Positions 194 through 30,435 of a DNA stretch of 32,000 bases are shown here, one piece after another. The DNA is from Nitrosococcus oceani ATCC 19707 (GTDB taxonomy: Bacteria > Pseudomonadota > Gammaproteobacteria > Nitrosococcales > Nitrosococcaceae). Every line of letters starts with the position of its first letter. Within the stretch, counting starts at the first letter, position 1. The notes under the pieces were generated by a model. That model was not told the DNA's origin. It saw only the letters and a program-made list of their open reading frames with translations, and ran no database searches. The stretch spans positions 660,001 to 692,000 of the forward strand of contig NC_007484.1 in assembly GCF_000012805.1 (NCBI RefSeq), read 5' to 3'. Position numbers and translations under genes: made by a program.

Positions 194-1740
<1,547 letters not shown>

Positions 1741-1741
1741 G

Positions 1742-3316
1742 ATGAGCGATCTTTACGCCCACCGTATCCTGATTCTTGATTTTGGTTCCCAGTATACCCA
1801 GCTGATTGCCCGCCGGGTCCGGGAAGCAGGAGTCTACTGCGAAATCCACCCCTATGATATGGCCGAGTCGACCCTGCGGGATTTTGCCCCACGGGGTATT
1901 ATCCTTTCCGGCGGACCAGCTTCTACGGTAGGGGAAACCGCGCCCCGACTCTCCCCACTGATTTTTGAGTTGGGCGTGCCGTTGCTGGGCATTTGCTATG
2001 GCATGCAGGTAATGGCAGCCCAATTGGGGGGGCGGGTGGAAGTCTCCGCTCAGCGGGAATATGGTTATGCCCAAGTGTACGTCCATGGTCATTCACGGCT
2101 GCTCCAGAATATCGAAGACCATACCACCGCCGGAGGTGAGGCGTTATTGGATGTGTGGATGAGTCATGGGGATCGGGTGATAGGCTTGCCGGAGGGATTT
2201 AAGCGGATTGCCGCAACGGCCCATGCGCCCCTGGCGGGAATGGCCGATGAGAAGCGGCGTTTCTATGGTTTCCAGTTCCACCCGGAAGTGACCCACACCC
2301 GTCAGGGAATTCGCATTCTGGAGCGCTTTATCTATGATATTTGTGGCTGCGAAGCCCTCTGGGAGCCCCGCCATATTATCGCCAAGAGTATTGAAAATAT
2401 ACGAACCAAAGTGGGCGCTGATACCGTGCTGCTGGGACTCTCCGGGGGGGTCGACTCCTCGGTTGCCGCGGCTTTGTTGCATAAGGCCATTGGCGATCAA
2501 CTCATTTGTGTGTTTGTGGACAATGGCCTGCTGCGCCAGGGAGAGGCCGATCAGGTTATGGCCACTTTTGCCCGTCATCTAGGCATTAAAGTTATCCATA
2601 TCTCGGCTGAAACCCGGTTTTTGGAAGCCCTGGCCGGGGTGATCGATCCGGAGGCGAAACGGAAAATTATTGGGCGGGTATTTATCGAGGTTTTTGAAGA
2701 AGAAGCCGCCAAATTGCCTAATGCGCAGTGGTTGGCCCAGGGCACGATTTATCCTGATGTGATCGAATCCGCGGGAGGCAAAACGGGAAAGGCCCAGGTC
2801 ATCAAGTCCCATCATAATGTGGGGGGGCTCCCCGAGGAGCTTAATTTAAAGCTCCTTGAGCCTCTGCGGGAACTGTTCAAGGATGAAGTGCGCCAACTCG
2901 GCACCGAACTGGGATTGCCCTTTGAGCTTGTCTACCGACACCCATTTCCAGGGCCGGGGCTGGGCGTACGGATTCTAGGTGAGGTTAAAAAAGAATACGC
3001 GGATTTGCTTCGCCTGGCGGATGCTATTTTTATTGAAGAATTACACGCTCATGATTGGTACGATAAGGTGAGTCAGGCTTTCGCCGTATTTTTGCCAGTA
3101 AAGTCCGTGGGTGTTATGGGCGATGGACGCTGCTACGATTTTGTGGTTGCCCTGCGGGCGGTGGAGAGCGTGGATTTCATGACTGCCCGTTGGGCTCATT
3201 TGCCCTACGATTTTTTGGATCATGTTTCCCGTCGCATTATTAACGAGGTAGCGGGTATTTCCCGGGTTACTTATGATATTTCCGGGAAACCTCCTGCAAC
3301 GATTGAGTGGGAATGA
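1742..3316 (+). CDS. guaA: GMP synthase (glutamine-hydrolysing)
   Basis: The N-terminus [28 protein letters not shown] is typical of GuaA. It has the GATase catalytic motif GICYGMQ, the ATP-PPase P-loop SGGVDSS, and the C-terminal PPATIEWE. I prefer the ATG at 1742 over the track start at 1694, because 1694 overlaps guaB and adds a non-conserved leader. Confidence 0.97.
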
Positions 3317-17862: not shown

Positions 17863-18430
17863 ACAACGAATGTTGTCTGTCCTCGTGCCCGCATTGTTAC
17901 TCGCGATAGGCGGGGGTTCTTCCGCATTGGCGGATCTGACAGTGATTTATGACAGCGGCCAAACCCAACCTTTGTCGCCGTTACTTGGTCCGTTCCAGGC
18001 GGATGAAACGCCGTCGACCGATCCTGCCAAAGCAAGCGAACCGAATCCATCGTCCAAATCTATGCTCGGCCCAGCAGTATTGAGTAACTTGTTGCCGTTG
18101 CACTCACCCGGATTGGAGGTCGGCGATAGTGGTGACACTCCACTGAATCCCGAGGTGCTGACGCGGCTCGCGCAGGGTAATCCGCGCCCGTTTTTTTTGA
18201 TCGGATCGGACGCGGTTTCTTTGGAGTGGCTGGCCTACCACCGGGACACACTCAGGAGCTTGGGTGCGGTGGGCATGTTGGTGCAGGCCGATACCGAGGC
18301 CGACGTTAGACGGGTTGCCGAGGTGGCGCAGGGCTTATCCATCACCCTGGGTTCAGGAAGTGATCTGGCCGCGGCGCTGGGCATCGATCGCTACCCAGTG
18401 TTGATTACGCCTGACGGTATTCGGCAGTGA
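17849..18430 (+). CDS. Secreted conserved ICE protein (PFL_4695-like)
   Basis: It has a signal peptide (LLLAIGGGSSALA), overlaps both neighbours (coupled), and is in the expected backbone position. The start may be TTG 17849 or ATG 17870. Confidence 0.5.
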   Translation: MSIRKQRMLSVLVPALLLAIGGGSSALADLTVIYDSGQTQPLSPLLGPFQADETPSTDPAKASEPNPSSKSMLGPAVLSNLLPLHSPGLEVGDSGDTPLNPEVLTRLAQGNPRPFFLIGSDAVSLEWLAYHRDTLRSLGAVGMLVQADTEADVRRVAEVAQGLSITLGSGSDLAAALGIDRYPVLITPDGIRQ

Positions 18431-20568
18431 GCACGCATCCGATGGAGGCGTTGTTGCGGCCTCCCGTCGAGTTGTGGTCCACGGCCACCGCGTTCGCGGC
18501 GGGTACACTGGCCTGGTTGGCGCCCTGGGCCTTGATGATGCCACCGGGTATCGCGATGGCCACCAGTCTGACCTTTTTCGGTTTTGGCATGTGGCGTGGC
18601 CGTCAGGCCTGGCGGGTACTGCGTTACCAGCACCACATGAAGCGACTGCCGAAGTATCAAGTGCGGGCCAATCAGATCCCCGTCAGTCGCCATAAGCTGT
18701 TTTTGGGCAAAGGCTTTCGCTGGACCCAGCAACACACTCAGCGTCTTCGCGATACCCTGAAGCCCGAGGTGCAGAGTTACGTTCAGCCGGGCACGCTCTA
18801 CCAGTGGGCGCGACAAAAGGAGGTAGCCTGGGAATCGATTCCAATCCTGTCTTTACTGGCCAAAGCCCTGCGCAGTCGATCCCGTTGGAACCCGCTGGCA
18901 CCATTACCTGCCGTCGGCGGCAAACCCGCACTGCACGCGGTTGATCCTCATGAACAGCCCGTGTGGATGGATCTGGGCGAAAGGGTTGGACACACGCTGG
19001 TGTTGGGTACCACGCGCGTCGGTAAGACACGCCTGGCGGAACTGCTGATTACCCAGGACATCCGCCGCGGTGATGTCGTCATTGTCTTCGATCCGAAAGG
19101 GGATGCCGATCTGTTGCGTCGCATCTACGCCGAGGCAAAGCGGGCCGGTCGTCTGGACGATTTTTATCTGTTTCATCTCGGCTTCCCCGAATTGTCCGCA
19201 CGCTACAACGCCATCGGTAATTTCTCCCGCATCACCGAGGTTGCGACCCGTATCGCCAATCAGTTGCCCAATGAGGGCAACTCCGCTGCCTTCAAAGAGT
19301 TCGCCTGGCGTTTCGTCAACATCATTGCGCGATCGCTGGTGGCCTTGAAGCGCCGACCGGACTACCAACAGATCCGCCGTTACATCAACGATATAGAGCC
19401 CTTGTTTGTGGAGTATGCCGGCCATTGTGCCCGCGTTGCCGGCATCGATGCCTGGGCGTCCCTGGTTGAAGAACGCGCAGGGGATATCAAAGAGCGCAAC
19501 CTGTCCAATGCACTGCGTGGCCGATCGATGGAAGCCATCGCCTGTATGCGGTTGTTGCAGGAGAGGGCCATTTATGACCCCGTCCTGGATGGCCTTATTT
19601 CCGCATTCAAATACGACAAGACCTATTTCGACAAGATTGTGAGTTCCGTTGGCCCGCTGATGGAAAAACTGACCACCGGCACCATCGCCGCGCTGATATC
19701 GCCGGATTACCAGGATGAACACGATGCCAGGCCGATCTTTGAATGGATGGATGTGGTGCGCCGCAAGGGCATCGTTTATGTGGGACTGGATGCTCTCACC
19801 GATACGACGGTGGCCAGCGCGGTCGGGAATTCCATGTTTGCAGATTTGGTGTCTGTGGCGGGGCATATCTACAAGCACGGCATCGCGGCTAATGGCGCTG
19901 ATGCGTCAGAATCAGAACGCCAGCGGCATTCGATTCCCACCATCTCCCTGCATGCGGATGAGTTCAACGAGTTGATCGGTGATGAATTCGTGCCGCTGTT
20001 GAACAAGGCGGGCGGGGCAGGCTTTCAGGTCACGGCCTACACCCAGACCTGGTCGGACGTGGAAGCGCGTATCGGCAGTCGGGCCAAAGCGGGGCAGGTA
20101 GCCGGTAACTTCAACACAATGCTGATGCTACGAGTGAAGGAGCTGGATACCGCTGCGATGCTGACCGAGCAGTTGCCGCGGGTTGAAGTCTTCACCCTGA
20201 TGAGTGTCTCCGGCGTCGATGATTCATCGGATCCCGGTTCCGGGGTCGACTTCAAATCCCGCAACGAAGACCGGATCAGTGTTTCGGAAGTGCCGATGCT
20301 GACCGCTGCCGATATGGTCACGCTGCCCAAGGGGCAGGCCTTCGCGCTGTTGGAAGGTGGCCAGCTCTGGAAAATCCGTATCCCGCTGCCGGATAACCGT
20401 GAGGATGCGGCCATGCCGAACGATTTTGAGGAGATGGCCGATGCCATGCGTCGCAGCTACATCACCAACGATCACTGGTATCGGGTCACTGACCATTGGT
20501 GGCACGCCGTCTCCGAGGCGACGGTCGAGTCTGCAGATTCTTCTCCAAATTCTGAGGGGCAAAACTAA
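18427..20568 (+). CDS. traD: Type IV coupling protein TraD (conjugative coupling ATPase)
   Basis: Two N-terminal TM helices, Walker A GTTRVGKT, a Walker B-like motif (SLHADEFNE), and 713 aa in length. Confidence 0.9.
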   Translation: MSTHPMEALLRPPVELWSTATAFAAGTLAWLAPWALMMPPGIAMATSLTFFGFGMWRGRQAWRVLRYQHHMKRLPKYQVRANQIPVSRHKLFLGKGFRWTQQHTQRLRDTLKPEVQSYVQPGTLYQWARQKEVAWESIPILSLLAKALRSRSRWNPLAPLPAVGGKPALHAVDPHEQPVWMDLGERVGHTLVLGTTRVGKTRLAELLITQDIRRGDVVIVFDPKGDADLLRRIYAEAKRAGRLDDFYLFHLGFPELSARYNAIGNFSRITEVATRIANQLPNEGNSAAFKEFAWRFVNIIARSLVALKRRPDYQQIRRYINDIEPLFVEYAGHCARVAGIDAWASLVEERAGDIKERNLSNALRGRSMEAIACMRLLQERAIYDPVLDGLISAFKYDKTYFDKIVSSVGPLMEKLTTGTIAALISPDYQDEHDARPIFEWMDVVRRKGIVYVGLDALTDTTVASAVGNSMFADLVSVAGHIYKHGIAANGADASESERQRHSIPTISLHADEFNELIGDEFVPLLNKAGGAGFQVTAYTQTWSDVEARIGSRAKAGQVAGNFNTMLMLRVKELDTAAMLTEQLPRVEVFTLMSVSGVDDSSDPGSGVDFKSRNEDRISVSEVPMLTAADMVTLPKGQAFALLEGGQLWKIRIPLPDNREDAAMPNDFEEMADAMRRSYITNDHWYRVTDHWWHAVSEATVESADSSPNSEGQN

Positions 20569-20570
20569 TT

Positions 20571-21302
20571 ATGGCGGAACCGACGGATCCCCGCCGACCC
20601 GTCACGCGCCCCGGCACATTCTCCCGGGTTTTGACAGGGCTAGCCCAGTGTCTTAAGTGGCTGTTTCTCTCACTGATATTTTCCGTTCTGATTGAATGGA
20701 TCGGCATGGTGTTCTGGTGGGAGGAGCAGGGGCTGGATCACAGCCGACAGATGCTGGTGAACGAGTTGCAGTTCCTCGGCGCAGACTTTCACCGCAGCTG
20801 GTTAACGGCTCATCCCATGCAATTCGCCAGTGATTTGTCCGACCGGTTTTACCATATCGCCTTTGAGTGGACCGGTATTGTCGATCTTATCCAGTGGATT
20901 ACGCCGGCCCCGGGCCTTGAAGAGTCCGGCGTGCGCCCGGTGCTGCACCGGTTTTACCGGCCAGTTGCTGACTATGTCCTGGCCGGTATGCAAATCACGC
21001 AGGTTTTTGCGGTACGTCTCGCCATCCTGACGCTGGCGACGCCGGTATTTGGACTGTTCACCCTGGTGGCACTGGTTGATGGTCTGGTGCGGCGGGACCT
21101 GCGGCGTTGGGGCGGCGGCAGGGAAAGCTCTTTCGTCTATCACTATGCCAAGAAAGCCGCCATACCGCTGATCATCATGGCCTGGGTGCTGTACCTGGCG
21201 CTACCGTTCAGTTTGCACCCGTCCTGGATCATCTTGCCGTTCGCTCTGGCCTTTGCCTTTGCTGTGACCATCACGGCCAGTACCTTCAAAAAGTATCTCT
21301 GA
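20571..21302 (+). CDS. Integral membrane ICE protein (PFL_4697-like)
   Basis: A multi-TM protein that starts 3 nt after the traD stop. It occupies the backbone position after traD. Confidence 0.6.
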   Translation: MAEPTDPRRPVTRPGTFSRVLTGLAQCLKWLFLSLIFSVLIEWIGMVFWWEEQGLDHSRQMLVNELQFLGADFHRSWLTAHPMQFASDLSDRFYHIAFEWTGIVDLIQWITPAPGLEESGVRPVLHRFYRPVADYVLAGMQITQVFAVRLAILTLATPVFGLFTLVALVDGLVRRDLRRWGGGRESSFVYHYAKKAAIPLIIMAWVLYLALPFSLHPSWIILPFALAFAFAVTITASTFKKYL

Positions 21303-21386
21303 TACAGTTGACTGTACCATTACAGTTTGCTAGACTGCATTTAAGCACTGTAAAGATACAGTATAAGTGCTGTTAAGGAGATAATC
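21303..21386. promoter_or_regulatory. Candidate autoregulatory operator/promoter of the Xre-RES operon
   Basis: TACAGT occurs at 21303-21308, 21321-21326 and 21357-21362. ACTGTA occurs at 21311-21316 and 21347-21352, and a degenerate ACTGCA at 21334-21339. The RBS AAGGAG is at 21375-21380. Confidence 0.45.
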
Positions 21387-21788
21387 ATGATCGCTCAAGC
21401 CGAACAACTGCTGCAACGTGGTTCCAGTGTCACCAGTTCACTGCTCCCGGCGATTTTCGCTATTTTCAGCCAGTGGCGCCTGACCGGTGCCCAGCAGATG
21501 ACCCTGTTGGGGCTCAGCAACGAGAAGACTCTCTATAACTGGAAGAGCCAGCCGGAAAAGGCCAAGTTAACCAGGGACCTACTGGAACGGGCCAGCTATA
21601 TCCTGGGGATCTACAAATCCCTGCAGATCCTGTTGCCCGATCAGGCGCTTGCCGATCAGTGGCTGGCTACCCCCAACGACAACCCGTTATTCAATGGCAC
21701 GGCCCCGCTGGAGCGGTTGCTGGCCGGACAGGTGGTCGATCTGGCCGTGGTCAGGAATTTCCTTGATGCGGAGCGGGGTGGCTGGTGA
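21387..21788 (+). CDS. Xre/MbcA/ParS-type antitoxin (DUF2384 C-terminal toxin-binding domain)
   Basis: A 133-aa protein directly upstream of a RES-domain gene and overlapping it (GTGA). The conserved C-terminal W...P...L.G..P...L pattern is present (WLATPNDNPLFNGTAPLERL). Confidence 0.8.
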   Translation: MIAQAEQLLQRGSSVTSSLLPAIFAIFSQWRLTGAQQMTLLGLSNEKTLYNWKSQPEKAKLTRDLLERASYILGIYKSLQILLPDQALADQWLATPNDNPLFNGTAPLERLLAGQVVDLAVVRNFLDAERGGW

Positions 21789-22477
21789 TCGATATCGATA
21801 CGCTACCGGGTAGCGAGACAAATGAACCGGTTTATCGGGTCATTCTGTCACGCTATCCGCAGATCCACCTGTTTGAGCGAGTCTCCAATCCACAGGATTG
21901 GGACGTGCTCTATGCCGTGGAGTCTCTAACCAACCCCAGGTTACGGGATGAGGTGGGTGATATTCGCCTGGTGCCACCGGAAGACCGGGTGTATGGCGAT
22001 GGCGCGTCCTGGATCATGGCGGCTTTCACTCACCCGCCGGTGGATGGACGTGGTGGCCGCTTCAATCGGGATTTCGGCATCTACTATTGCGCCGCGGATG
22101 AGGCGGTCGCCATCGCCGAATCATCCTTTCATCGGGCACGATTCCTACGTGAATCCAGAATCGACAAGACCACCCAGGAGATGCGCGTTATCCGCGCGCA
22201 GCTGGGGCCGACAACCCTCCAGGATGTGCGGCACCTGGTCGGAGATGCCATCTACGATCCCGACGACTACGGCGAGGCACAGACACTTGGCGATACGCTT
22301 CGGGCTGCCAATAGCTTCGGCATTCACTACCAAAGCGTGAGAGCGAAAGGGGAGTGCTACGGGGTGATGCGACCCAAGGCGCTCACCGATGCCATCCACT
22401 GGCGCTATCTGCGTTACCACTATGAACAGGGGACAGTAGTGAATGTTGAATCCCTGGACGGCAGTGGCAAGAGGTGA
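21785..22477 (+). CDS. RES-domain toxin (NAD+-targeting family)
   Basis: The R-E-S triad contexts are GGRFN (Arg), AIAES (Glu) and HYQSVR (Ser). At 230 aa it has the typical size, and it is paired with the DUF2384 antitoxin. Confidence 0.85.
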   Translation: MIDIDTLPGSETNEPVYRVILSRYPQIHLFERVSNPQDWDVLYAVESLTNPRLRDEVGDIRLVPPEDRVYGDGASWIMAAFTHPPVDGRGGRFNRDFGIYYCAADEAVAIAESSFHRARFLRESRIDKTTQEMRVIRAQLGPTTLQDVRHLVGDAIYDPDDYGEAQTLGDTLRAANSFGIHYQSVRAKGECYGVMRPKALTDAIHWRYLRYHYEQGTVVNVESLDGSGKR

Positions 22478-23100
22478 TGGCAATGTATAAAGAGCTGCTG
22501 TGGATCTTCACCCAACTACCGGACGATTACATCGTCCTCGATACCGAAACCACCGGCCTGCCTGACGAAAACGGACTGCCTGATATCGTGACACTTGGCA
22601 TCACCGTGGTGAGCAATCGAGAGATTGCGGAATCCGTCGAGTTCAAGACAAGACCACAAAAACGCATTTCAGAAGAGGCACAGTCGATACACGGCATTAC
22701 CAACAAACAGGCTGCTGCATTTGACTCCTTTGATTCCCAGTGGCAGCAGATTTCCGAATATCTGAAGCATCAACTTATCGTCATTCATAACGCCAGTTTT
22801 GACTGGCCGATCCTGCTTGATCATGTTTTACGACACGGATTGGCAATGCCGGAAATTCAAGGCGTATTTTGTAGTCAGAAAGCGGCTATTCCCTGGGCAC
22901 AGGCAATGGATCTCCCATGTAGCCACAGAGGTCCTTCGTTAGACACATTAACGAAAGCACTTGGGGTCGAAGATCTCCGAGTCAAAGAAGATGGGTTACA
23001 TGGGGCGAAGATTGATAGCCGGCAGTTGGCTCAGGTTGTACAGGTGATAAGTCGAAATGAAAATATGGAATGGGTCTTAATCGTGAATCACAGGGGCTAG
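22477..23100 (+). CDS. DEDDh 3'-5' exonuclease (DnaQ/epsilon-like)
   Basis: Exo I is VLDTETTGL, Exo II is HNASFDWPIL, and Exo III is HGAKIDS (H-x4-D). The start overlaps the RES stop (TGATG), indicating translational coupling. The alternative GTG at 22474 would give a 4-nt overlap. Confidence 0.85.
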   Translation: MAMYKELLWIFTQLPDDYIVLDTETTGLPDENGLPDIVTLGITVVSNREIAESVEFKTRPQKRISEEAQSIHGITNKQAAAFDSFDSQWQQISEYLKHQLIVIHNASFDWPILLDHVLRHGLAMPEIQGVFCSQKAAIPWAQAMDLPCSHRGPSLDTLTKALGVEDLRVKEDGLHGAKIDSRQLAQVVQVISRNENMEWVLIVNHRG

Positions 23101-23239
23101 AGATGTGCATATGCGTCCGGCTACAGATGCGGTCTCTCGATTTTCCAACTTGGGATGACCAAGTTGAAGAGAAAACAGGAATCAACCCAATCATGGTAAA
23201 CAACTGAAGCGGGCAACTACCGAAGGTTTCAAGATAGCG

Positions 23240-23589
23240 ATGACACAATCACCTGAACTCGCAGGCGGCGAAGGTTTCACCTTTGAGGGCGATGCGGCTG
23301 CATTCTATCTCGTCGCGCTACTAGCCGAAGCTTATGCTCCCGGCATCGATGATCGAACCGTTGTTCGAGTTTCTGTTCAGCAACGTGATTTCGGTGAACC
23401 GCTGGATGATGTGATCGTCGACTTTGAAGATGCCTCAAAGAACCCCGCTCGACTTAGCCTCCAGGTAAAGCGTTCGCTCACAATCAGCAGTGCAAAAACG
23501 AACAAAGACTTCCACGAAGTAATCCGCGACAGTTGGGCAACCCTCAACAAGTCAGACTTCCGCTTCAACGTCGACCGCTACGGGGCCGC
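23240..23589 (+). pseudogene. 5' fragment of the IS-split giant gene: PD-(D/E)xK (Cap4/Mrr-like) nuclease-type N-domain
   Basis: The translation MTQSPELAGGEGFTFEGDAAAFYLVALL...EPLDDVIVDFED...LSLQVKRSL shows a D...(D/E)...QxK arrangement (D codons from 23405, QVK at 23462-23470). The track ORF continues to 23620 only because it reads into the IS left end before hitting a stop. Confidence 0.7.
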
Positions 23590-23662
23590 CGTAAGCTTCC
23601 CCCTATCTGACACAGGCTGAAGTTGGAGTTTTCTGGCAGGATATTACTGCGAGGAGACGAAG

Positions 23663-23929
23663 ATGAAACGAAGCCGATTTACCGAAAGCCAGATCGTATC
23701 GATTCTGAAAGAGGCAGATGCCGGAGCAAAGATTAAGGATCTTTGCCGCAAACACGGCATCAGCGATGCGACTTACTACAACTGGAAGGCGAAGTACGGT
23801 GGCATGAGTACATCGGACTTGCGACGGCTGAAGGAGACGGAGGCTGAGTTGTCGCAGTACAAGAAAATGTATGCGGAGCTCGCCCACGAGAATTACGCAC
23901 TGAAGGATCTCATTGAGAAAAAGCTCTGA
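23663..23929 (+). CDS. IS3-family transposase OrfA (HTH)
   Basis: The sequence MKRSRFTESQIVSILKEADAGAKIKDLCRKHGISDATYYNWKAKYGGM... is the classic IS3/IS407-group OrfA. It has a C-terminal leucine-zipper-like region. An A-run AAAAAG at 23918-23923 lies near the end. Confidence 0.9.
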   Translation: MKRSRFTESQIVSILKEADAGAKIKDLCRKHGISDATYYNWKAKYGGMSTSDLRRLKETEAELSQYKKMYAELAHENYALKDLIEKKL

Positions 23930-23964
23930 GGCCACTGGATAAGCGCGAAGCGGCGCAGCACCTG

Positions 23965-24783
23965 GTGGCCAAACACGAGTTGAGCAAGACGAAAGCTTGC
24001 GCGGCCGTACAACTGTCGCGCTCGAGCTGGTATCGGCAGCCGTCGCAACAGGCGGTACGAGATCAGCCTGTCATCGATGCGCTCAACACGATGCTCAAGA
24101 AGTACCCACGCTGGGGCTTTTGGATGTGCTATGACCGAATGCGACTGGACGGCCATGCCTGGAATCACAAGCGAGTTTATCGAGTGTACACAGCGATGAA
24201 GCTGAATCTTCCTCGGCGCAAGAAGCGCCGGCTACCGCAGCGTGTGCAGCAGCCGATGGTGGTTGAGGCCCGAGCCAATGCTGAATGGTCTTTGGACTTT
24301 ATGAGCGATGCGCTGTACCACGGTCGCCGCTTCCGCACGCTGAACGTGCTTGATGAGGGCGTCCGTGAAGCGCTGGATATCGTCATTGATACATCCATCC
24401 CTGGCGCTCGCGTTGTGCGGACCTTGGATCGTCTCATCGAATGGCGCGGCAAGCCGGATGCAATACGGGTGGACAACGGGCCAGAGTACATCTCCCAGGT
24501 GTTCTCGGAATGGTGCGAGAAGCACGGCATCAAACTGAACTACATCCAGCCAGGGAAACCGAACCAGAACGCGTACATCGAACGCTTCAACCGCACGTAT
24601 CGACATGAGGTGCTGAATGCCTACGTGTTCGAATCGTTACGGCAAGTCAGAGAAATCACGCGAGCATGGATCATCGAATACAACGAAGAACGACCGCACG
24701 ACAGCTTGGGAAAAATACCGCCTGCCATGTTCCGACGGCAGGTCGAAAACGCCAGAAACTCTACTTTAGAACTGTGTCATTGA
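23965..24783 (+). CDS. IS3-family transposase OrfB (DDE catalytic domain), probably expressed as an OrfAB fusion by -1 frameshift
   Basis: It is in the -1 frame relative to orfA. The DDE contexts are WSLDFMSD, IRVDNGPEY and NAYIERFNRTYRHE, followed by the conserved YNEERPHDSLG. Confidence 0.9.
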   Translation: MAKHELSKTKACAAVQLSRSSWYRQPSQQAVRDQPVIDALNTMLKKYPRWGFWMCYDRMRLDGHAWNHKRVYRVYTAMKLNLPRRKKRRLPQRVQQPMVVEARANAEWSLDFMSDALYHGRRFRTLNVLDEGVREALDIVIDTSIPGARVVRTLDRLIEWRGKPDAIRVDNGPEYISQVFSEWCEKHGIKLNYIQPGKPNQNAYIERFNRTYRHEVLNAYVFESLRQVREITRAWIIEYNEERPHDSLGKIPPAMFRRQVENARNSTLELCH

Positions 24784-24797
24784 CGGGGAAGCTTACG

Positions 24798-27700
24798 CCG
24801 CAGTTGGTACGGTTACCCCTGCCAAAGAAAGGGCACTAAAGACCCTTTGCGATTGGGCGCGCGAAAGCCTGACGGCTGACCATTTCCACGCTCGATTTGC
24901 CAAGGGCGGCAGCGCCAGTGCAGAAATCAAAACGGTCAAGAACGACGTCGTTACTTTACTGGAAGCGGTGAAGGGGGCGCCGTGCACGAATGAAGAAGAG
25001 CATCAGTTACTTGCACATTTCGTGCTCATACAGTTCGACTTCCTTCGCGAAGGTGCCACTGATCCCCCTGATGCCATTAATCGTGTTCGGGATTGCCTAG
25101 CGCCAGATGACACAGCCAAGGCACCGCTTGTCTGGTCGCGAGTAGTTCAGCTAGCCCGTTCATCAGCTGGAAAAGCTGGTCAGTTTGATCGCATACGACT
25201 TGTTCGCTCGATTTCACCTGTCGCACGCCTACGCGGCGCGACGTCATTACGTCTCAACCTGGACAAGTTGACAGAGCTCGCGAAGAGCTATGCGAACCTA
25301 ATTCCGGACGATATTGGGGGAACAAAGCTCGACCGCATCTCGCTCCTTGAGAGCATTGATGCAAAACTCGCCACAGCTCGTGCCGTCCAGGTGCGCGGCC
25401 TGCCAGGAAGTGGCAAATCAGTCGTGGTGAGGCGAGCGGTACAGCGCGCGTTAGAACACGGGCCGACTCTCTTCCTCAAAGCCGAACAGCTCGAAGGGAC
25501 CAGCTGGATCAGCTATGCGAACTCACAGGGTTTATCGGGTGCTCATCTAGAGCAACTTCTCGTAGAGATCGGTGCTGCCGGTACCCCCGTACTCTTTGTC
25601 GATGCGATCGATCGCATTGACAAAGAACACCAGCCCATCATCGTCGATGTGATTCACACCATTGTGGAATCACCACTGCTTGATAACTGGCGCGTAGTCG
25701 TTTCCCTTCGTGACACCGGCATTGAAATGCTTCGTAATTGGTTGGGTGAATTCCTCGATACCCTTAATGTCGAGACGCTAAGCGTTGGTCAGCTGAGCGA
25801 CGATGAGGCTGAGTCGCTCGCAAAGGCCAAGCCACACCTGAGATCGCTCCTGTTTGGATCCGCTCAGGTGCGAGAAATCGTCCGACGGCCCTTTTTCGCG
25901 AAAGTGCTGAACCAGAGTTACATGGTCGACTCCAGCAGTTCGACATTCGCCCCCCAATCTGAAGTCGGTTTGATTGAGAATTGGTGGCGGAGGGGTGGCT
26001 ACAATGAGACGGGTCAAAACGCGTTAGAACGGCAGCGCGCACTGCTCGACTTGGCAAGTGTGCGTGCCCGCCAGCTTAGTCAGCCGATTGCCCTTAGCCA
26101 GCTAACATCCGTCGCACACATAGATGGTCTAAGATCAGACGGCATACTCCAAAATGCCCGTGAAGGGGTTTCCGTCCGCTTTGCACACGATATCTTCTTC
26201 GAATGGGCCTTCTTCCATGTCCTAGCCGATCGCGGACTCCAATGGGTGGAGGTTATCAAGGCCTGCGGCGAGCCACCGGCAGTAGCCCGCGTCGTCGAGC
26301 TGACTTCGCAATGGGAATATGCGCAGGGAACAAACTGGCCAGCGCACCTTGCCCAAACGGAGAGTTCGGATCTTAGGTCACAATGGCTGCGAGCGTGGCT
26401 GGTCGGTCCTCTTGGGACTGCGAGATTCGATGATGATGAAGACCAATTCGCGACGGCCGTCATTGCCAACGACTTTCGACTTTTCAGGAAGACGCTCGTC
26501 TGGTTTCAGGCTGAGAAGACCACCCCGAATGAGAGTATCCTTACTGGTGGTCTCCCACAGGAACAACGCCAACGGTTCGCTGATCTTCTCGGATGGCCTT
26601 CCGACTTCTCCGCGTGGCGTCGCCTCATCAATTTTATACTACAGCGCATTGCAGATATTCCGCAGCGGCTTTATCCAGAGATCGTCTCCATCTTCGAGGT
26701 CTGGCAGAATGCCTTGGCCGACCTCCGCAACCCGACGTCTCATGCACTTCTGCAACAATGCGCTGTCTGGCTGGCCGCCATCGACGCGATCAGTACTGCC
26801 GATAAGCCTGATGAGAACTCTGCTTATTGGGGGGCGGTTCCCGGCTTGGGTGCTCTCAGAAAATCGCTGGGCCAGCTCCTCTTAAGATCGTCGAGAGCCG
26901 AGCCATCACTTTCAGCCGACTATTTGCGACGGGTCGCCAACTCGGAGCGCATCCGAGACGATGCATTTCATGACATCATCGCCTACTCACCCGTCCTTGC
27001 CCAATCGCTACCTCAGTCTGTGGTCGAGCTTTCGCTAGCGTTCCTGCTTGGGGAGCTTCCGGATGAGCAAGTCGCCCGAGAAAAACAGGAACTTCATGAT
27101 ACGGCCGAGTGGCGCAAAGCAGTTTTAGCAAAGCCGGAAGCCGAACAGACGCGTAAAGAAAAAATGGCACTTTCGGGCGGATTCTATCTGCGAACCGTCG
27201 GCGATTTCAGCTACCACGACTGGGAAAGGCTTTCGATCCACGACGACCACCGAAACTTCTGGCCGCCTTCGCCACTTCGAGAGCCCTTTCACTCGCTTTT
27301 CCAATCATCTCCTGACCATGCACTGCGGCTCCTTCGAGAACTCTGTAATCATGCGATGACCGCATGGCGACAGCTACATCATCACTCACACGACCGTGGG
27401 GGCACCCCTATACCGCTCGAACTTACGTTTCCCTGGGGTACCCAAATTTTCTGGGGCACCGATCGAGAGTATCTTTGGTTTCGGTCGACGTGGGCACCTA
27501 AAGCCATCGGCTGCGCATTCATGGCGCTCGAGGAGTGGTGCTTCACCGAGCTTGAGCAAAGCCGGACTGTTGACGAGCTGATCCAGCAAATCGTCGAGGG
27601 GAACGAGTGCATCGCCATCCTAGGAATGGCGTCTATGCTCGCTCTCCACACCGAGTGGGTGTCTGAAACAACATTGCCGCTCTTCACCTCGCAGCGCCTG

Positions 27701-29836
27701 TTGGCCGCTGACCATAATCGAATGGCGCAAGACCTTTCATCATCGACGAACCTGATCGGTTTCACGAGTAGTACTGACAAACCCCACATTGAGGCAATCC
27801 AGATGGCAAATGCTAGGACTGTCCGTAAGACACAGCTTAGTTGGATGGTACCCAGGTTTGTCTTTGCCACGGAGCCATTCCGCGATCGAGCACGCGAAGC
27901 GATCCTCAATTTCAAGAACGATCTGCCCTTCCAGTACGAAGAACACCGCGACATTCCGGAGGCACGGGAGTACCTCACAAAGCAGGCCCTCGAATATGCC
28001 GAGTTGGCGGATCCGGAAAACTATCAGGCCTACCGCACCGAAGAGGGTTCGGACCAAATAGCGATTGTCCACGTCAGCCCATCTGCTGCTCAACCTGAAA
28101 ATATCGCCAGAGCCGAAGAGGCTAATAAGTACCTCAGGCAGACCGGCCTCTGGACATGGGCATCCAAATCATTCGAAGAGACGACATTGAACGACACTTA
28201 TACGATCGAGGATGCCATCGTATTGTCCAAGGAAGCGGACGCCAGCGACTTATTCGAACACCCGAACAGCGAGAATGAAGAAGAGCAGTTGGGGATGCGT
28301 CGAGGTGCAGTCGCCGCCACAGCAGCCATAGCACTTAACTTTAGAGAAGGGTGTACACACGAAGACCTTGAGTGGGCTCGTGGTGTCCTAGGACGCGCAA
28401 TCCGTCTGCCAGAAAAGTTCGAATCGATGTGGTCCCCTGGTTCCGTCGTCCCGTGGCACCAGGGGATCTATGTGGCACGGGGGCTCGCAGCGGATCTCCG
28501 GGAAGGTACAGCAGCGCGCAGCACGGCCAATGACCTCCTCGGGCTAATCGCGCACCCACTTGAAATTGTTGCGTTGACCGCACTCGAAGAGGCCTGCAAG
28601 CTTTGGCCTAATGACTCGAAGTTGACTTGGGCCGCGCTGATATTGGCGTTTTCACTCTGCCACGTTCCTCCGCGGCCGCGTGACCAGCCCCGTCAACACG
28701 GTGAGGCACTCCATACATCAAATGAAGCACAAGCCGCTGTCAACGCGGCGCTTGCGTTCTATGAGCACGGAAGCGAATGGGCGCCTCTCCCTTTACCGCC
28801 TCCAGCCTGGGTGAAGGTCGAACCTGAGAAGGGCCGGCGTGGGTATCAAAGATATGAAGATTACGACTTGGATGATGCAACCGACGCTGCTGAAGTATGG
28901 GGTGAACCGGATGTCTTCTGGCACTCAAAGCAGGCTGCAGAAGTCCTTCAGCGCATCCCCTTGGACGAGGTTCTAAACAGCAGTGCAAAGAGCGTGCTTC
29001 TCGACTTCCTTGCCAGTGTTCTCGACTGGACCAACCAGAAGAATGCACCACCGTGGGTGAAGCCCGGACGCCGCGATCGGTCGGCGACCCAAATCTTTGA
29101 GTGGACGCATACGCTCGGATCAAGGCTGGGATACATGGCTGGCCTTATGCCGCTTGCCGACTTTCAGGCGCGCTTTCTTGATCCGATTTTGGACCTCGAA
29201 GGCGACAATTGCTGGTCTCTTCTTTCGCCATTCACGAGCACCTTTGTCTGCGCTTACGTGTACGATGCGCCGGTCGCTCCAGTCGATACAGTTGCGATAC
29301 TCGATCTCTGTCTCGCGCGGCTCCTCCAGGACCGTACCTTCAAGCGTGACACCTACCGGAGCGGAGAATTTTCAGGCTTCGATCAACCCGAGCTTGTTCG
29401 TACGTTGATGTTTGTCTCAGTCGAACGCGCCGATTTGGCCGCTCGCTACGTGAATGGCGACTGGTCCGAAATCAACCGCATCCTGCCCTTGATTGATCGA
29501 TTTATTCGCGCTGGCGGATGGGCTGCTTCAGTGATGGACTCATTCTTGACGCTCTGTGAACGAGCAAGAGCTAACTACCCGGCCGAAGCCTTCGCAGAGC
29601 AAGTGCTCGCAATTATCGGCGACGGTCCCGACAGCCTGAAAGGTTGGCATGGAACATTCATCCCAGCACGCATTGCAGAGCTGGTGCAACACTTTGCACA
29701 TCGTGACGCGCCGATGACGCTGGCCCTGGCACAGAAGTTCCTGCGAATCCTTGACATGTTAGTCGACATGGGAGATCGGCGAAGTGCCGCGCTGCAGCTT
29801 GGTGAATCGTTCCGCGAGATTAGTGCGCTCTCTTAG
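24798..29836 (+). pseudogene. 3' fragment of the IS-split giant gene: P-loop STAND-like NTPase plus a C-terminal region of roughly 1,350 aa with no recognised motif
   Basis: The frame is open from the IS right end. Walker A GLPGSGKS is at 25397-25420 and Walker B VLFVDAID at 25589-25612, followed by VVVSLRD. I recognise no other motif in the remaining region. The track ORF 24968-29836 uses an internal GTG as its start. Confidence 0.75.
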
Positions 29837-30132: not shown

Positions 30133-30435
30133 ATGAAACGCCAATTCTGGCCATCAACTTTTCTGATTCTAGGCTTGTGCGTCGCGCCGGCGGCGTTCGC
30201 TGATGCAGACGCGGAGCGTGAGGCGCTGGCGAAAATCATCCATGAGCTCAATGCCCTCGAGACGCTAATCAATCGCGCTGAGGTCAATGCTGATCGGGAT
30301 TCCCGTATCCGATTTCGTTATGACTGGCTGCGTCAGGATCTGAAGCAGATCAAGGACGGCATCCAGTCACACATCGATTCCCCCCGCGCGCAGCCTCGCT
30401 CATTTCCGCCATTGCGCGGCGATTACCGTCGATAG
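30133..30435 (+). CDS. RAQPRD-family ICE protein (secreted)
   Basis: Signal peptide MKRQFWPSTFLILGLCVAPAAFA. The family-defining motif RAQPR lies near the C-terminus (DSPRAQPRSFPPL). Confidence 0.8.
   Translation: MKRQFWPSTFLILGLCVAPAAFADADAEREALAKIIHELNALETLINRAEVNADRDSRIRFRYDWLRQDLKQIKDGIQSHIDSPRAQPRSFPPLRGDYRR

Follow-up and report, generated by a model that had tools for sequence, protein, structure and literature searches.

RES-Xre toxin-antitoxin modules and a three-gene locus in Nitrosococcus oceani

Research on RES-Xre toxin-antitoxin (TA) systems deals with NAD+-depleting modules of two genes and their part in persistence, plasmid stability and DNA-damage responses. RES toxins deplete NAD+, and all the characterised ones act on NAD+ or on Prs; in Legionella, the pair GndRX acts specifically under genotoxic stress through NAD+ depletion (PMC12457610). 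Xre-RES complexes repress their own promoter via palindromic sites (PMC12204516). The present work concerns a 32-kb stretch of the genome of Nitrosococcus oceani ATCC 19707 (NC_007484.1), referred to as the window, whose coordinates are used throughout, and in it a RES-Xre pair that is followed directly by a gene encoding a DnaQ-like exonuclease of the DEDDh type. The initial annotation of this locus considered that the RES-Xre pairs described so far are bipartite and have no nuclease partner. The literature on the described systems agrees with the first statement; as to the second, no nuclease partner was found in the searchable literature, where no RES or RES-Xre module with a DnaQ/DEDD exonuclease is described as a system.

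The window locus belongs to a widespread and undescribed three-gene RES-Xre architecture, in which the linkage of the exonuclease to the TA pair is well supported while the role of the exonuclease could prove incidental. It comprises three consecutive open reading frames (ORFs):

21387-21788, + strand: Xre-type antitoxin, 133 aa, with the Shine-Dalgarno sequence AAGGAG upstream
21785-22477, + strand: RES-domain toxin, 230 aa, GTG start
22483-23100, + strand: DnaQ-like DEDDh 3'-5' exonuclease, 205 aa counted from a conserved ATG (the ORF, 22474-23100, 208 aa, is open from a GTG at 22474)

Conservation of the three-gene linkage

The gene neighbourhood of the exonuclease was examined from three starting points, and its linkage to RES-Xre proved to be conserved in other genomes in all of them (78/80 and 36/40 loci, and five deeper lineages that are 35-56% identical). 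In an exonuclease-anchored search, for which one genome per species was scanned, 80 loci were found, 78 of which carry Xre, RES and exonuclease genes in the same order, 69 of them near full length. Across these 78 loci the identity to the window proteins is 83-99% for Xre, 64-92% for the exonuclease and 70-95% for RES (no lower than 77% for an intact RES). Most hosts are marine or environmental members of the Gammaproteobacteria, including Porticoccus, Haliea, Halioglobus, Pseudohongiella, Alcanivorax, Oceanobacter, Nitrincola, Sedimenticola, Thiogranum and metagenome-assembled genomes of Lysobacterales. The DNA common to the window and its relatives forms a discrete block at about 21265-23025, which extends to the left into the gene for the conjugation protein TraD in 33 loci; in about 45 loci lacking TraD its left edge is either the stop codon of an upstream DUF4400 gene or the -35 hexamer of the predicted promoter. 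The right edge falls within the last ~25 codons of the exonuclease gene.

A RES-anchored search of metagenome contigs, which is not biased towards the exonuclease and was restricted to loci with enough downstream sequence, showed how the linkage changes with distance. Where RES is at least 73% identical to that of the window, the exonuclease gene lies 5-40 nt downstream in 36 of the 40 loci; at 53-61% identity it is found in one of the two evaluable loci, and at 41-50% in one (L147) of ~25. In L145 (RES 57%) and L147 (RES 45%) it stands directly behind RES.

Deeper relatives were sought exhaustively over 50%-identity representatives, which gave 23 exonuclease clusters at E <=1e-30, clearly apart from generic DnaQ (~E 1e-12). 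Eleven of the 23 were looked up for their neighbours, and in five of these (P0124, P0126, P0127, P0128 and P0129, with exonucleases 42-52% identical) the gene lies directly behind RES, preceded in turn by Xre wherever the contig reaches far enough. The five deep triads have unrelated neighbours, one of them adjoining umuDC, and their loci range from 39 to 54% G+C; RES in these distant triads is 35-53% identical to the window toxin. In another cluster, P0136 (43% identical; L095:2778-4401), the exonuclease gene is followed, not preceded, by a gene for an Xre-like helix-turn-helix (HTH) protein, and the little sequence that remains showed no RES domain; this locus may be a rearranged variant.

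Sequence divergence within the triads is informative as well. Pairwise identities of RES and exonuclease correlate across six triad lineages (Spearman 0.72), as would be expected if both genes diverged together. The ratio of nonsynonymous to synonymous substitution (dN/dS) over 60 loci, at dS 0.7-1.1, is lowest for xre (0.05), followed by res (0.08) and the exonuclease gene (0.10); all three genes are under purifying selection and have therefore been kept intact over a long divergence. The triad exonucleases all keep the DEDDh residues. Three other relatives (P0138, P0145 and P0160) have lost catalytic residues, with LNVATTG in place of LDTETTG as an example; these, of which P0138 is a solo member, may be inactive derivatives with another role. 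Altogether, the sequence comparisons indicate that the block from promoter to exonuclease has been passed on and mobilised as one piece in many genomes of Gammaproteobacteria as well as in deeper lineages.

The antitoxin and the toxin

The antitoxin matches two Pfam families above their cut-offs, an N-terminal Xre-like HTH domain (Xre-like-HTH, PF20432, E 2.9e-11) and the C-terminal toxin-binding domain of MbcA and ParS (Xre_MbcA_ParS_C, PF09722, E 1.9e-9). The toxin matches the RES domain over nearly its whole length (PF08808, E 8.4e-30, profile positions 4-156 of 157), and its Arg-Glu-Ser residues, R92, E112 and S184, do not vary across 12 diverse relatives taken from triads and bipartite pairs alike. 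Single-sequence searches of the PDB with RES and with Xre gave no match; the solved structure nearest to RES is a RES protein (8QNQ/8QNL), which was reached only by profile search (E 2.6e-9). In sequence terms the window RES is remote from every solved RES toxin. By all the sequence features examined the first two genes would be classed as a RES-Xre pair, the two-gene architecture being the sole feature from which the locus departs.

The exonuclease

The third protein matches the RNase_T family of Pfam (PF00929, E 3.3e-16) and the generic DEDDh model of PADLOC (E 6e-25); in PADLOC-DB v2.0 its matches are this model and the exonuclease part of PDC-S48 only. The initial annotation had recorded a complete set of Exo I, II and III(h) motifs, and this holds: the full DEDDh set, D20/E22 (in DTETTG), D107 (in HNASFD) and H173/D178 (in HGAKID), is present and invariant in 36 homologues, so that catalytic competence is predicted. 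With residues numbered from the M at 22483, the codons are located as follows:

22540-22548, + strand: Exo I codons, D20/E22
22801-22803, + strand: Exo II codon, D107
22999-23016, + strand: Exo III codons, H173/D178

Several features separate this protein from the proofreading subunit of the replicative polymerase. It scores 74.4 bits against the NCBIfam dnaQ model TIGR01406 (cut-off 222.7) and 72.4 bits against NF004316 (cut-off 196), and its match to the epsilon subunit of DNA polymerase III (Pol III epsilon) covers only residues 8-177 of 243. The protein and its homologues (193-205 aa) stop just after Exo III, with no tail for binding polymerase alpha or the clamp, and they share a family-specific N-terminal helix (LLxxFxxLP) and the motifs VFCSQ and RGPSLD, which are found in triad and solo members alike. 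It is a DEDDh enzyme and no DnaQ orthologue. Sequence and fold matches in the PDB are Pol III epsilon, the exonuclease domains of PolC and DinG, ExoX and TREX1/2, with a further fold match to a DnaQ domain from Streptococcus thermophilus; the relatives include Cas-linked (Cas2-linked) DnaQ. DNA is the most likely substrate, because every one of the fold matches works on 3' ends of DNA. Since DEDDh enzymes require a free 3' end, degradation of a nucleotide signal, which had also been suggested as a role, is unlikely. A phage origin of the exonuclease was considered and rejected: no relatives were found in viral contigs, and PHROGs returned only the annotation 'DNA polymerase exonuclease subunit'.

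Operon layout, promoter and operators

The three genes are tightly packed. At the first junction the sequence GTGA (21785-21788) joins the Xre stop to the RES start in an overlap, exactly as annotated. At the second, a stop/start overlap had been proposed at TGATG (22475-22479); this sequence is indeed present, but the overlapping start is not conserved, the ATG of TGATG often being destroyed in related loci (TGAAGG, TGAGGG, TAACGG, TGACGG). Exonuclease homologues of 193-201 aa begin with MYKELL, corresponding to ATG 22483 in the window. This ATG is kept in the related loci together with a ribosome-binding site, which is present in most of the 69 aligned loci:

22471-22474, + strand: GAGG Shine-Dalgarno sequence of the exonuclease gene, within the last RES codons, 8 nt before ATG 22483

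The conserved exonuclease start is ATG 22483, 5 nt past the RES stop, with its ribosome-binding site inside the 3' end of res; given that the upstream ATG is often destroyed while ATG 22483 and GAGG are kept, the junction is a 5-nt gap with no stop/start overlap. In deeper relatives the junction between RES and exonuclease varies from a 23-nt overlap to a 12-nt gap. Tight coupling is general among the relatives, its exact form differing.

A single upstream promoter rich in operators had been proposed for all three genes, and the scan of 21200-23300 bears this out, with the following predicted elements:

21308-21336, + strand: sigma-70-like promoter, TTGACT-17-TAGACT, TG-extended, predicted to serve the three-gene operon
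21311-21326, strand not applicable: putative operator 1, palindrome ACTGTA-CCAT-TACAGT, overlapping the -35 hexamer
21347-21362, strand not applicable: putative operator 2, palindrome ACTGTA-AAGA-TACAGT, downstream of the -10 hexamer and 36 bp from operator 1

The promoter-like site is the sole one on the + strand in the scanned interval and is conserved in related loci; where the upstream genes of the mobile element described below are absent (for example in L053), homology starts at the -35 hexamer. Between the genes the same scan gave no promoter-like site and no convincing terminator, a single terminator-like match inside xre (21740-21755) being at chance level (one found, 1.5 expected).

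Perfect 16-bp palindromes of the form ACTGTA-N4-TACAGT occur just twice in the window, compared with 0.02 expected by chance, and an additional half-site, TACAGT, lies beside operator 1 at 21303-21308. Both palindromes are found in 68 of the 69 related loci, with conserved half-sites and variable spacers, the pattern that would be expected of protein-binding sites. Two DNA-binding sites have been shown for the Xre-RES complex of Pseudomonas putida (PMC12204516), and by analogy the two palindromes fit such two-site binding. A reading of the operators as LexA (SOS) boxes was rejected on spacing alone, their half-sites being arranged as CTGT-N6-ACAG. The gammaproteobacterial LexA box is CTGT-N8-ACAG.

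The triad at the edge of a defence hotspot

The window covers the left part of an integrative and conjugative element (ICE) of the ICEclc/PFGI-1 type, which has integrated at the guaA 3' end. The integrase is followed by backbone genes encoding a PFGI-1-type ParB (TIGR03764), a STY4528-family replication protein and a TIGR03759 protein. The main features around the triad are:

280-1740: guaB
1694-3316: guaA
3606-4823: tyrosine integrase
18427-20568, + strand: TraD coupling protein (TIGR03754, 1084 bits)
20571-21302, + strand: TIGR03747/DUF4400 membrane protein (E 1.9e-91), which with TraD forms the left flank of the hotspot
23240-29836, + strand: Avs4-like STAND NTPase gene (PADLOC, NCBIfam), N-terminal part 23240-23620, remainder 24968-29836
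~23593-24796: IS3-family insertion splitting the Avs4-like gene, with orfA at 23663-23929 and orfB at 23965-24783 (borders from alignment to L001)
30133-30435, + strand: RAQPRD-family ICE protein (TIGR01690, E 1.6e-26), right flank of the hotspot

The stretch between traD and the RAQPRD gene has been published as a variable defence region, GI-Hotspot 8, of ICEclc-family islands in Pseudomonas (PMC12629846), and the window has both the flanking genes by which it is defined (TIGR03754, TIGR03747 and TIGR01690) and further matches to the backbone of this ICE family: TIGR03750 (next to the RAQPRD gene), TIGR03759 and TIGR03764. Neither 'Xre' nor 'exonuclease' is mentioned in the main text of that report (PMC12629846). 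Among the 78 related loci the TraD cluster is found upstream of the triad in 32 and the DUF4400 cluster in 35, and the RAQPRD gene (cluster c7) closes the variable region in 29. An intact 1794-aa Avs4-like copy occupies the same place in the related ICE L001, and the split defence gene of the window is probably inactivated.

What follows the triad varies extremely. The 78 genes that come after the exonuclease represent 70 different clusters, and the cargo includes PARIS AriA, Gabija GajA, OLD, Lamassu LmuB, BrxC, KAP and STAND NTPases and a CBASS-type 4TM effector; many large proteins of the hotspot match no known system. By sequence comparison the triad constantly occupies the left-hand end of a defence hotspot that is otherwise hypervariable. 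The possibility that the exonuclease belongs to a downstream defence gene was rejected, given that the downstream genes differ nearly everywhere while the exonuclease is constant, and that some loci keep the exonuclease without the cargo. In several loci of the latter kind (L013, L028, L047, L042, L053 and L064) the block adjoins guaA, and genes for integration or conjugation are absent; they include three Porticoccus species, which have it at the same chromosomal position. These blocks look like relics of decayed ICEs, in which the addictive module has outlived the element.

A proposed role for the exonuclease and its alternatives

Based on this evidence, we consider it moderately probable that the locus is a three-gene operon in which a RES-Xre type II TA pair is accompanied by an exonuclease, predicted to be catalytically intact, as a conserved accessory component. 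Activity of the exonuclease as a DNA-directed second effector is our best guess and is offered with low certainty. By analogy with the characterised pairs, Xre together with RES would bind the two operators, repress the promoter and block the NAD+-consuming toxin, and loss of the antitoxin would leave RES active and the operon derepressed. As the final gene of the operon, with no separate promoter, the exonuclease would rise together with the toxin. It could then digest nicked or replicating DNA from its 3' ends at a time when loss of NAD+ has stalled the NAD+-dependent ligase, and the outcome would be that killing is reinforced or the replication of an invader blocked, making addiction or abortive infection harder to escape.

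A number of observations weigh against this reading. Xre-RES is intact beside a truncated or internally deleted exonuclease in 9 of the 78 genomes, and 4 of the 40 in-clade loci of the RES-anchored search cleanly lack the exonuclease, homology stopping at the RES stop. Exonucleases with no RES nearby make up 5 of the 11 clusters looked up (P0121, P0133, P0142, P0144 and P0138), which shows that the enzyme can work, or at any rate be maintained, in the absence of RES. A bipartite organisation is found in the nearest large clade of RES-Xre pairs (41-50% identity) and in the RES-Xre pairs on plasmids (37-47% identity; 4/4 inspected). Within the window clade the exonuclease gene has a G+C content of 0.50 compared with 0.58 for xre/res, and a G+C at third codon positions (GC3) of 0.54 compared with 0.65-0.73; in the window itself G+C falls from 0.59 (21387-22477) to 0.47 (22478-23100) at the border between res and the exonuclease gene, and every close relative shows such a fall. 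The lower G+C suggests a separate origin. Moreover, no RES-exonuclease fusion was present among ten long exonuclease-domain proteins checked, Xre and RES have no family match in PADLOC-DB v2.0, where no such system is listed, and the AlphaFold model of the exonuclease is of moderate confidence (predicted local distance difference test, pLDDT, 74). The in-clade linkage could be mostly a matter of shared ancestry and of an addictive neighbouring TA pair, and the co-effector role is something that we only infer.

The truncated exonucleases occur in L066, L068, L070, L071, L073, L074, L079, L080 and L081; their truncation points vary (window-equivalent 22535-22937), and the variable region then begins inside the exonuclease gene. 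Close DNA relatives of the locus were not found on plasmids, and the matches to the exonuclease there are generic DnaQ-like proteins with at most 32% identity. Low G+C of the exonuclease gene was also considered as a general trait of the triads and was rejected, as it is confined to the window clade and not seen in distant triads.

Since the exonuclease has been lost where Xre-RES is intact, it is not needed to restrain the toxin; it is an accessory component, neither an antitoxin nor obligate. The initial annotation had raised the exonuclease as a third component of the system, and the conserved linkage supports a three-gene unit, but about 10% of loci have lost the exonuclease from this unit, and solo relatives of the enzyme exist. 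A stronger version of this idea would make the exonuclease integral to a new tripartite RES-Xre class, either a two-hit device for addiction or abortive infection or one in which the exonuclease senses foreign DNA ends and triggers the toxin, and thus in either form an undescribed ICE-borne defence system; we regard this as possible, though doubtful.

Rather unlikely, in our view, is that the exonuclease is a passenger with an unrelated job, for example in DNA repair, in proofreading or in the processing of ICE DNA, and has been kept by its use of the TA promoter and by selection against deletions near an addictive TA pair. Such a passenger role would agree with the losses that spare Xre-RES in ~10% of loci, the solo members, the lower G+C, the presence of most close copies on one ICE lineage and the distant triad that adjoins umuDC. 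It is harder to reconcile with the recurrence of the triad in five or more deep lineages whose neighbouring genes are unrelated and whose hosts differ in G+C, or with the co-divergence of RES and exonuclease; the relic blocks, too, end exactly at the promoter and at the exonuclease, which is kept where all ICE genes are gone, and the protein is missing the C-terminal segment by which Pol III epsilon binds the polymerase and the clamp and scores far under the dnaQ cut-offs. The view that the gene is independent cargo merely sharing the transcript is accordingly disfavoured by the linkage conserved in the clade and in the five deeper lineages.

It seems quite improbable that the exonuclease serves as a sensor or trigger which processes DNA ends arising from phage, conjugative entry or damage and so controls the release of RES. 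The response of the Legionella pair GndRX to genotoxic stress, exerted by NAD+ depletion (PMC12457610), and the position of the module within a defence hotspot would suit this role, and the conserved helix at the N-terminus might offer a surface for binding; yet the helix is found in solo relatives too, the exonuclease core is the only domain of the protein, the clade includes RES-Xre pairs that have been maintained in the absence of the exonuclease, and no mechanism connects a 3'-5' exonuclease to the removal of the antitoxin. That a divergent RES modifies nucleic-acid ends which the exonuclease trims, as a second neutraliser reversing the damage in the way DarG does towards DarT, is highly improbable: RES shares its fold with the ADP-ribosyltransferases, among which there are enzymes that modify DNA (PMC9503650), and the window RES is remote from the solved toxins (no single-sequence match, profile E 2.6e-9), but all characterised RES toxins act on NAD+ or Prs (PMC12457610), loss of a needed neutraliser beside an intact RES would be harmful, and Xre carries the full toxin-binding domain.

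The co-inheritance of the exonuclease with RES-Xre over large distances raises the question of whether nucleic-acid degradation cooperates with NAD+ depletion or controls it. The triad is a further candidate for the group of TA and defence modules with several components. It also borders, on the left, a hypervariable and defence-rich region of marine ICEs, where its survival after the decay of the ICE illustrates the persistence of addictive modules. Should the exonuclease turn out to have an unrelated job, the locus would still be a clear example of hitch-hiking on a TA operon.

Comparison with known systems

The described RES-Xre systems (MbcTA, ParST, P. putida RES-Xre, NatRT, VPA0770-0769, KnaAT and GndRX) share with the window module the order of the genes, antitoxin first and overlapping, the Xre-like HTH and MbcA/ParS C-terminal domains of the antitoxin and the RES domain with its R, E and S residues in the toxin. 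Their promoters are autoregulated through palindromes, and here two conserved palindromes, predicted from the sequence, overlap the promoter-like site. In contrast to these two-gene systems, the window module has a conserved third gene, for the exonuclease, its RES is far from the solved RES proteins, and it sits on an ICE in a defence hotspot. With GI-Hotspot 8 of Pseudomonas that hotspot has in common the flanking ICE genes and the variable, defence-rich content, whereas the marine lineage has a fixed resident at its left edge, the Xre-RES-exonuclease triad.

The exonuclease has the same DEDDh fold and full Exo I/II/III(h) set as DnaQ/Pol III epsilon, ExoX, the exonuclease domains of PolC and DinG, TREX1/2 and Cas2-linked DnaQ. 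The window enzyme scores 74 bits against the curated dnaQ cut-off of 222.7, and it further differs from DnaQ-type enzymes in ending after the core, in its own N-terminal helix and VFCSQ and RGPSLD motifs and in being encoded behind a toxin gene.

Tripartite TA systems are exemplified by the toxin-antitoxin-chaperone (TAC) modules, PaaR-PaaA-ParE and omega-epsilon-zeta, in which the third component is a chaperone or a regulator rather than a nuclease. Like the window triad, they have a third gene in the operon that is inherited with the pair. In the window, unlike in these systems, the product of the third gene is a predicted enzyme, and one that can be lost without losing the pair.

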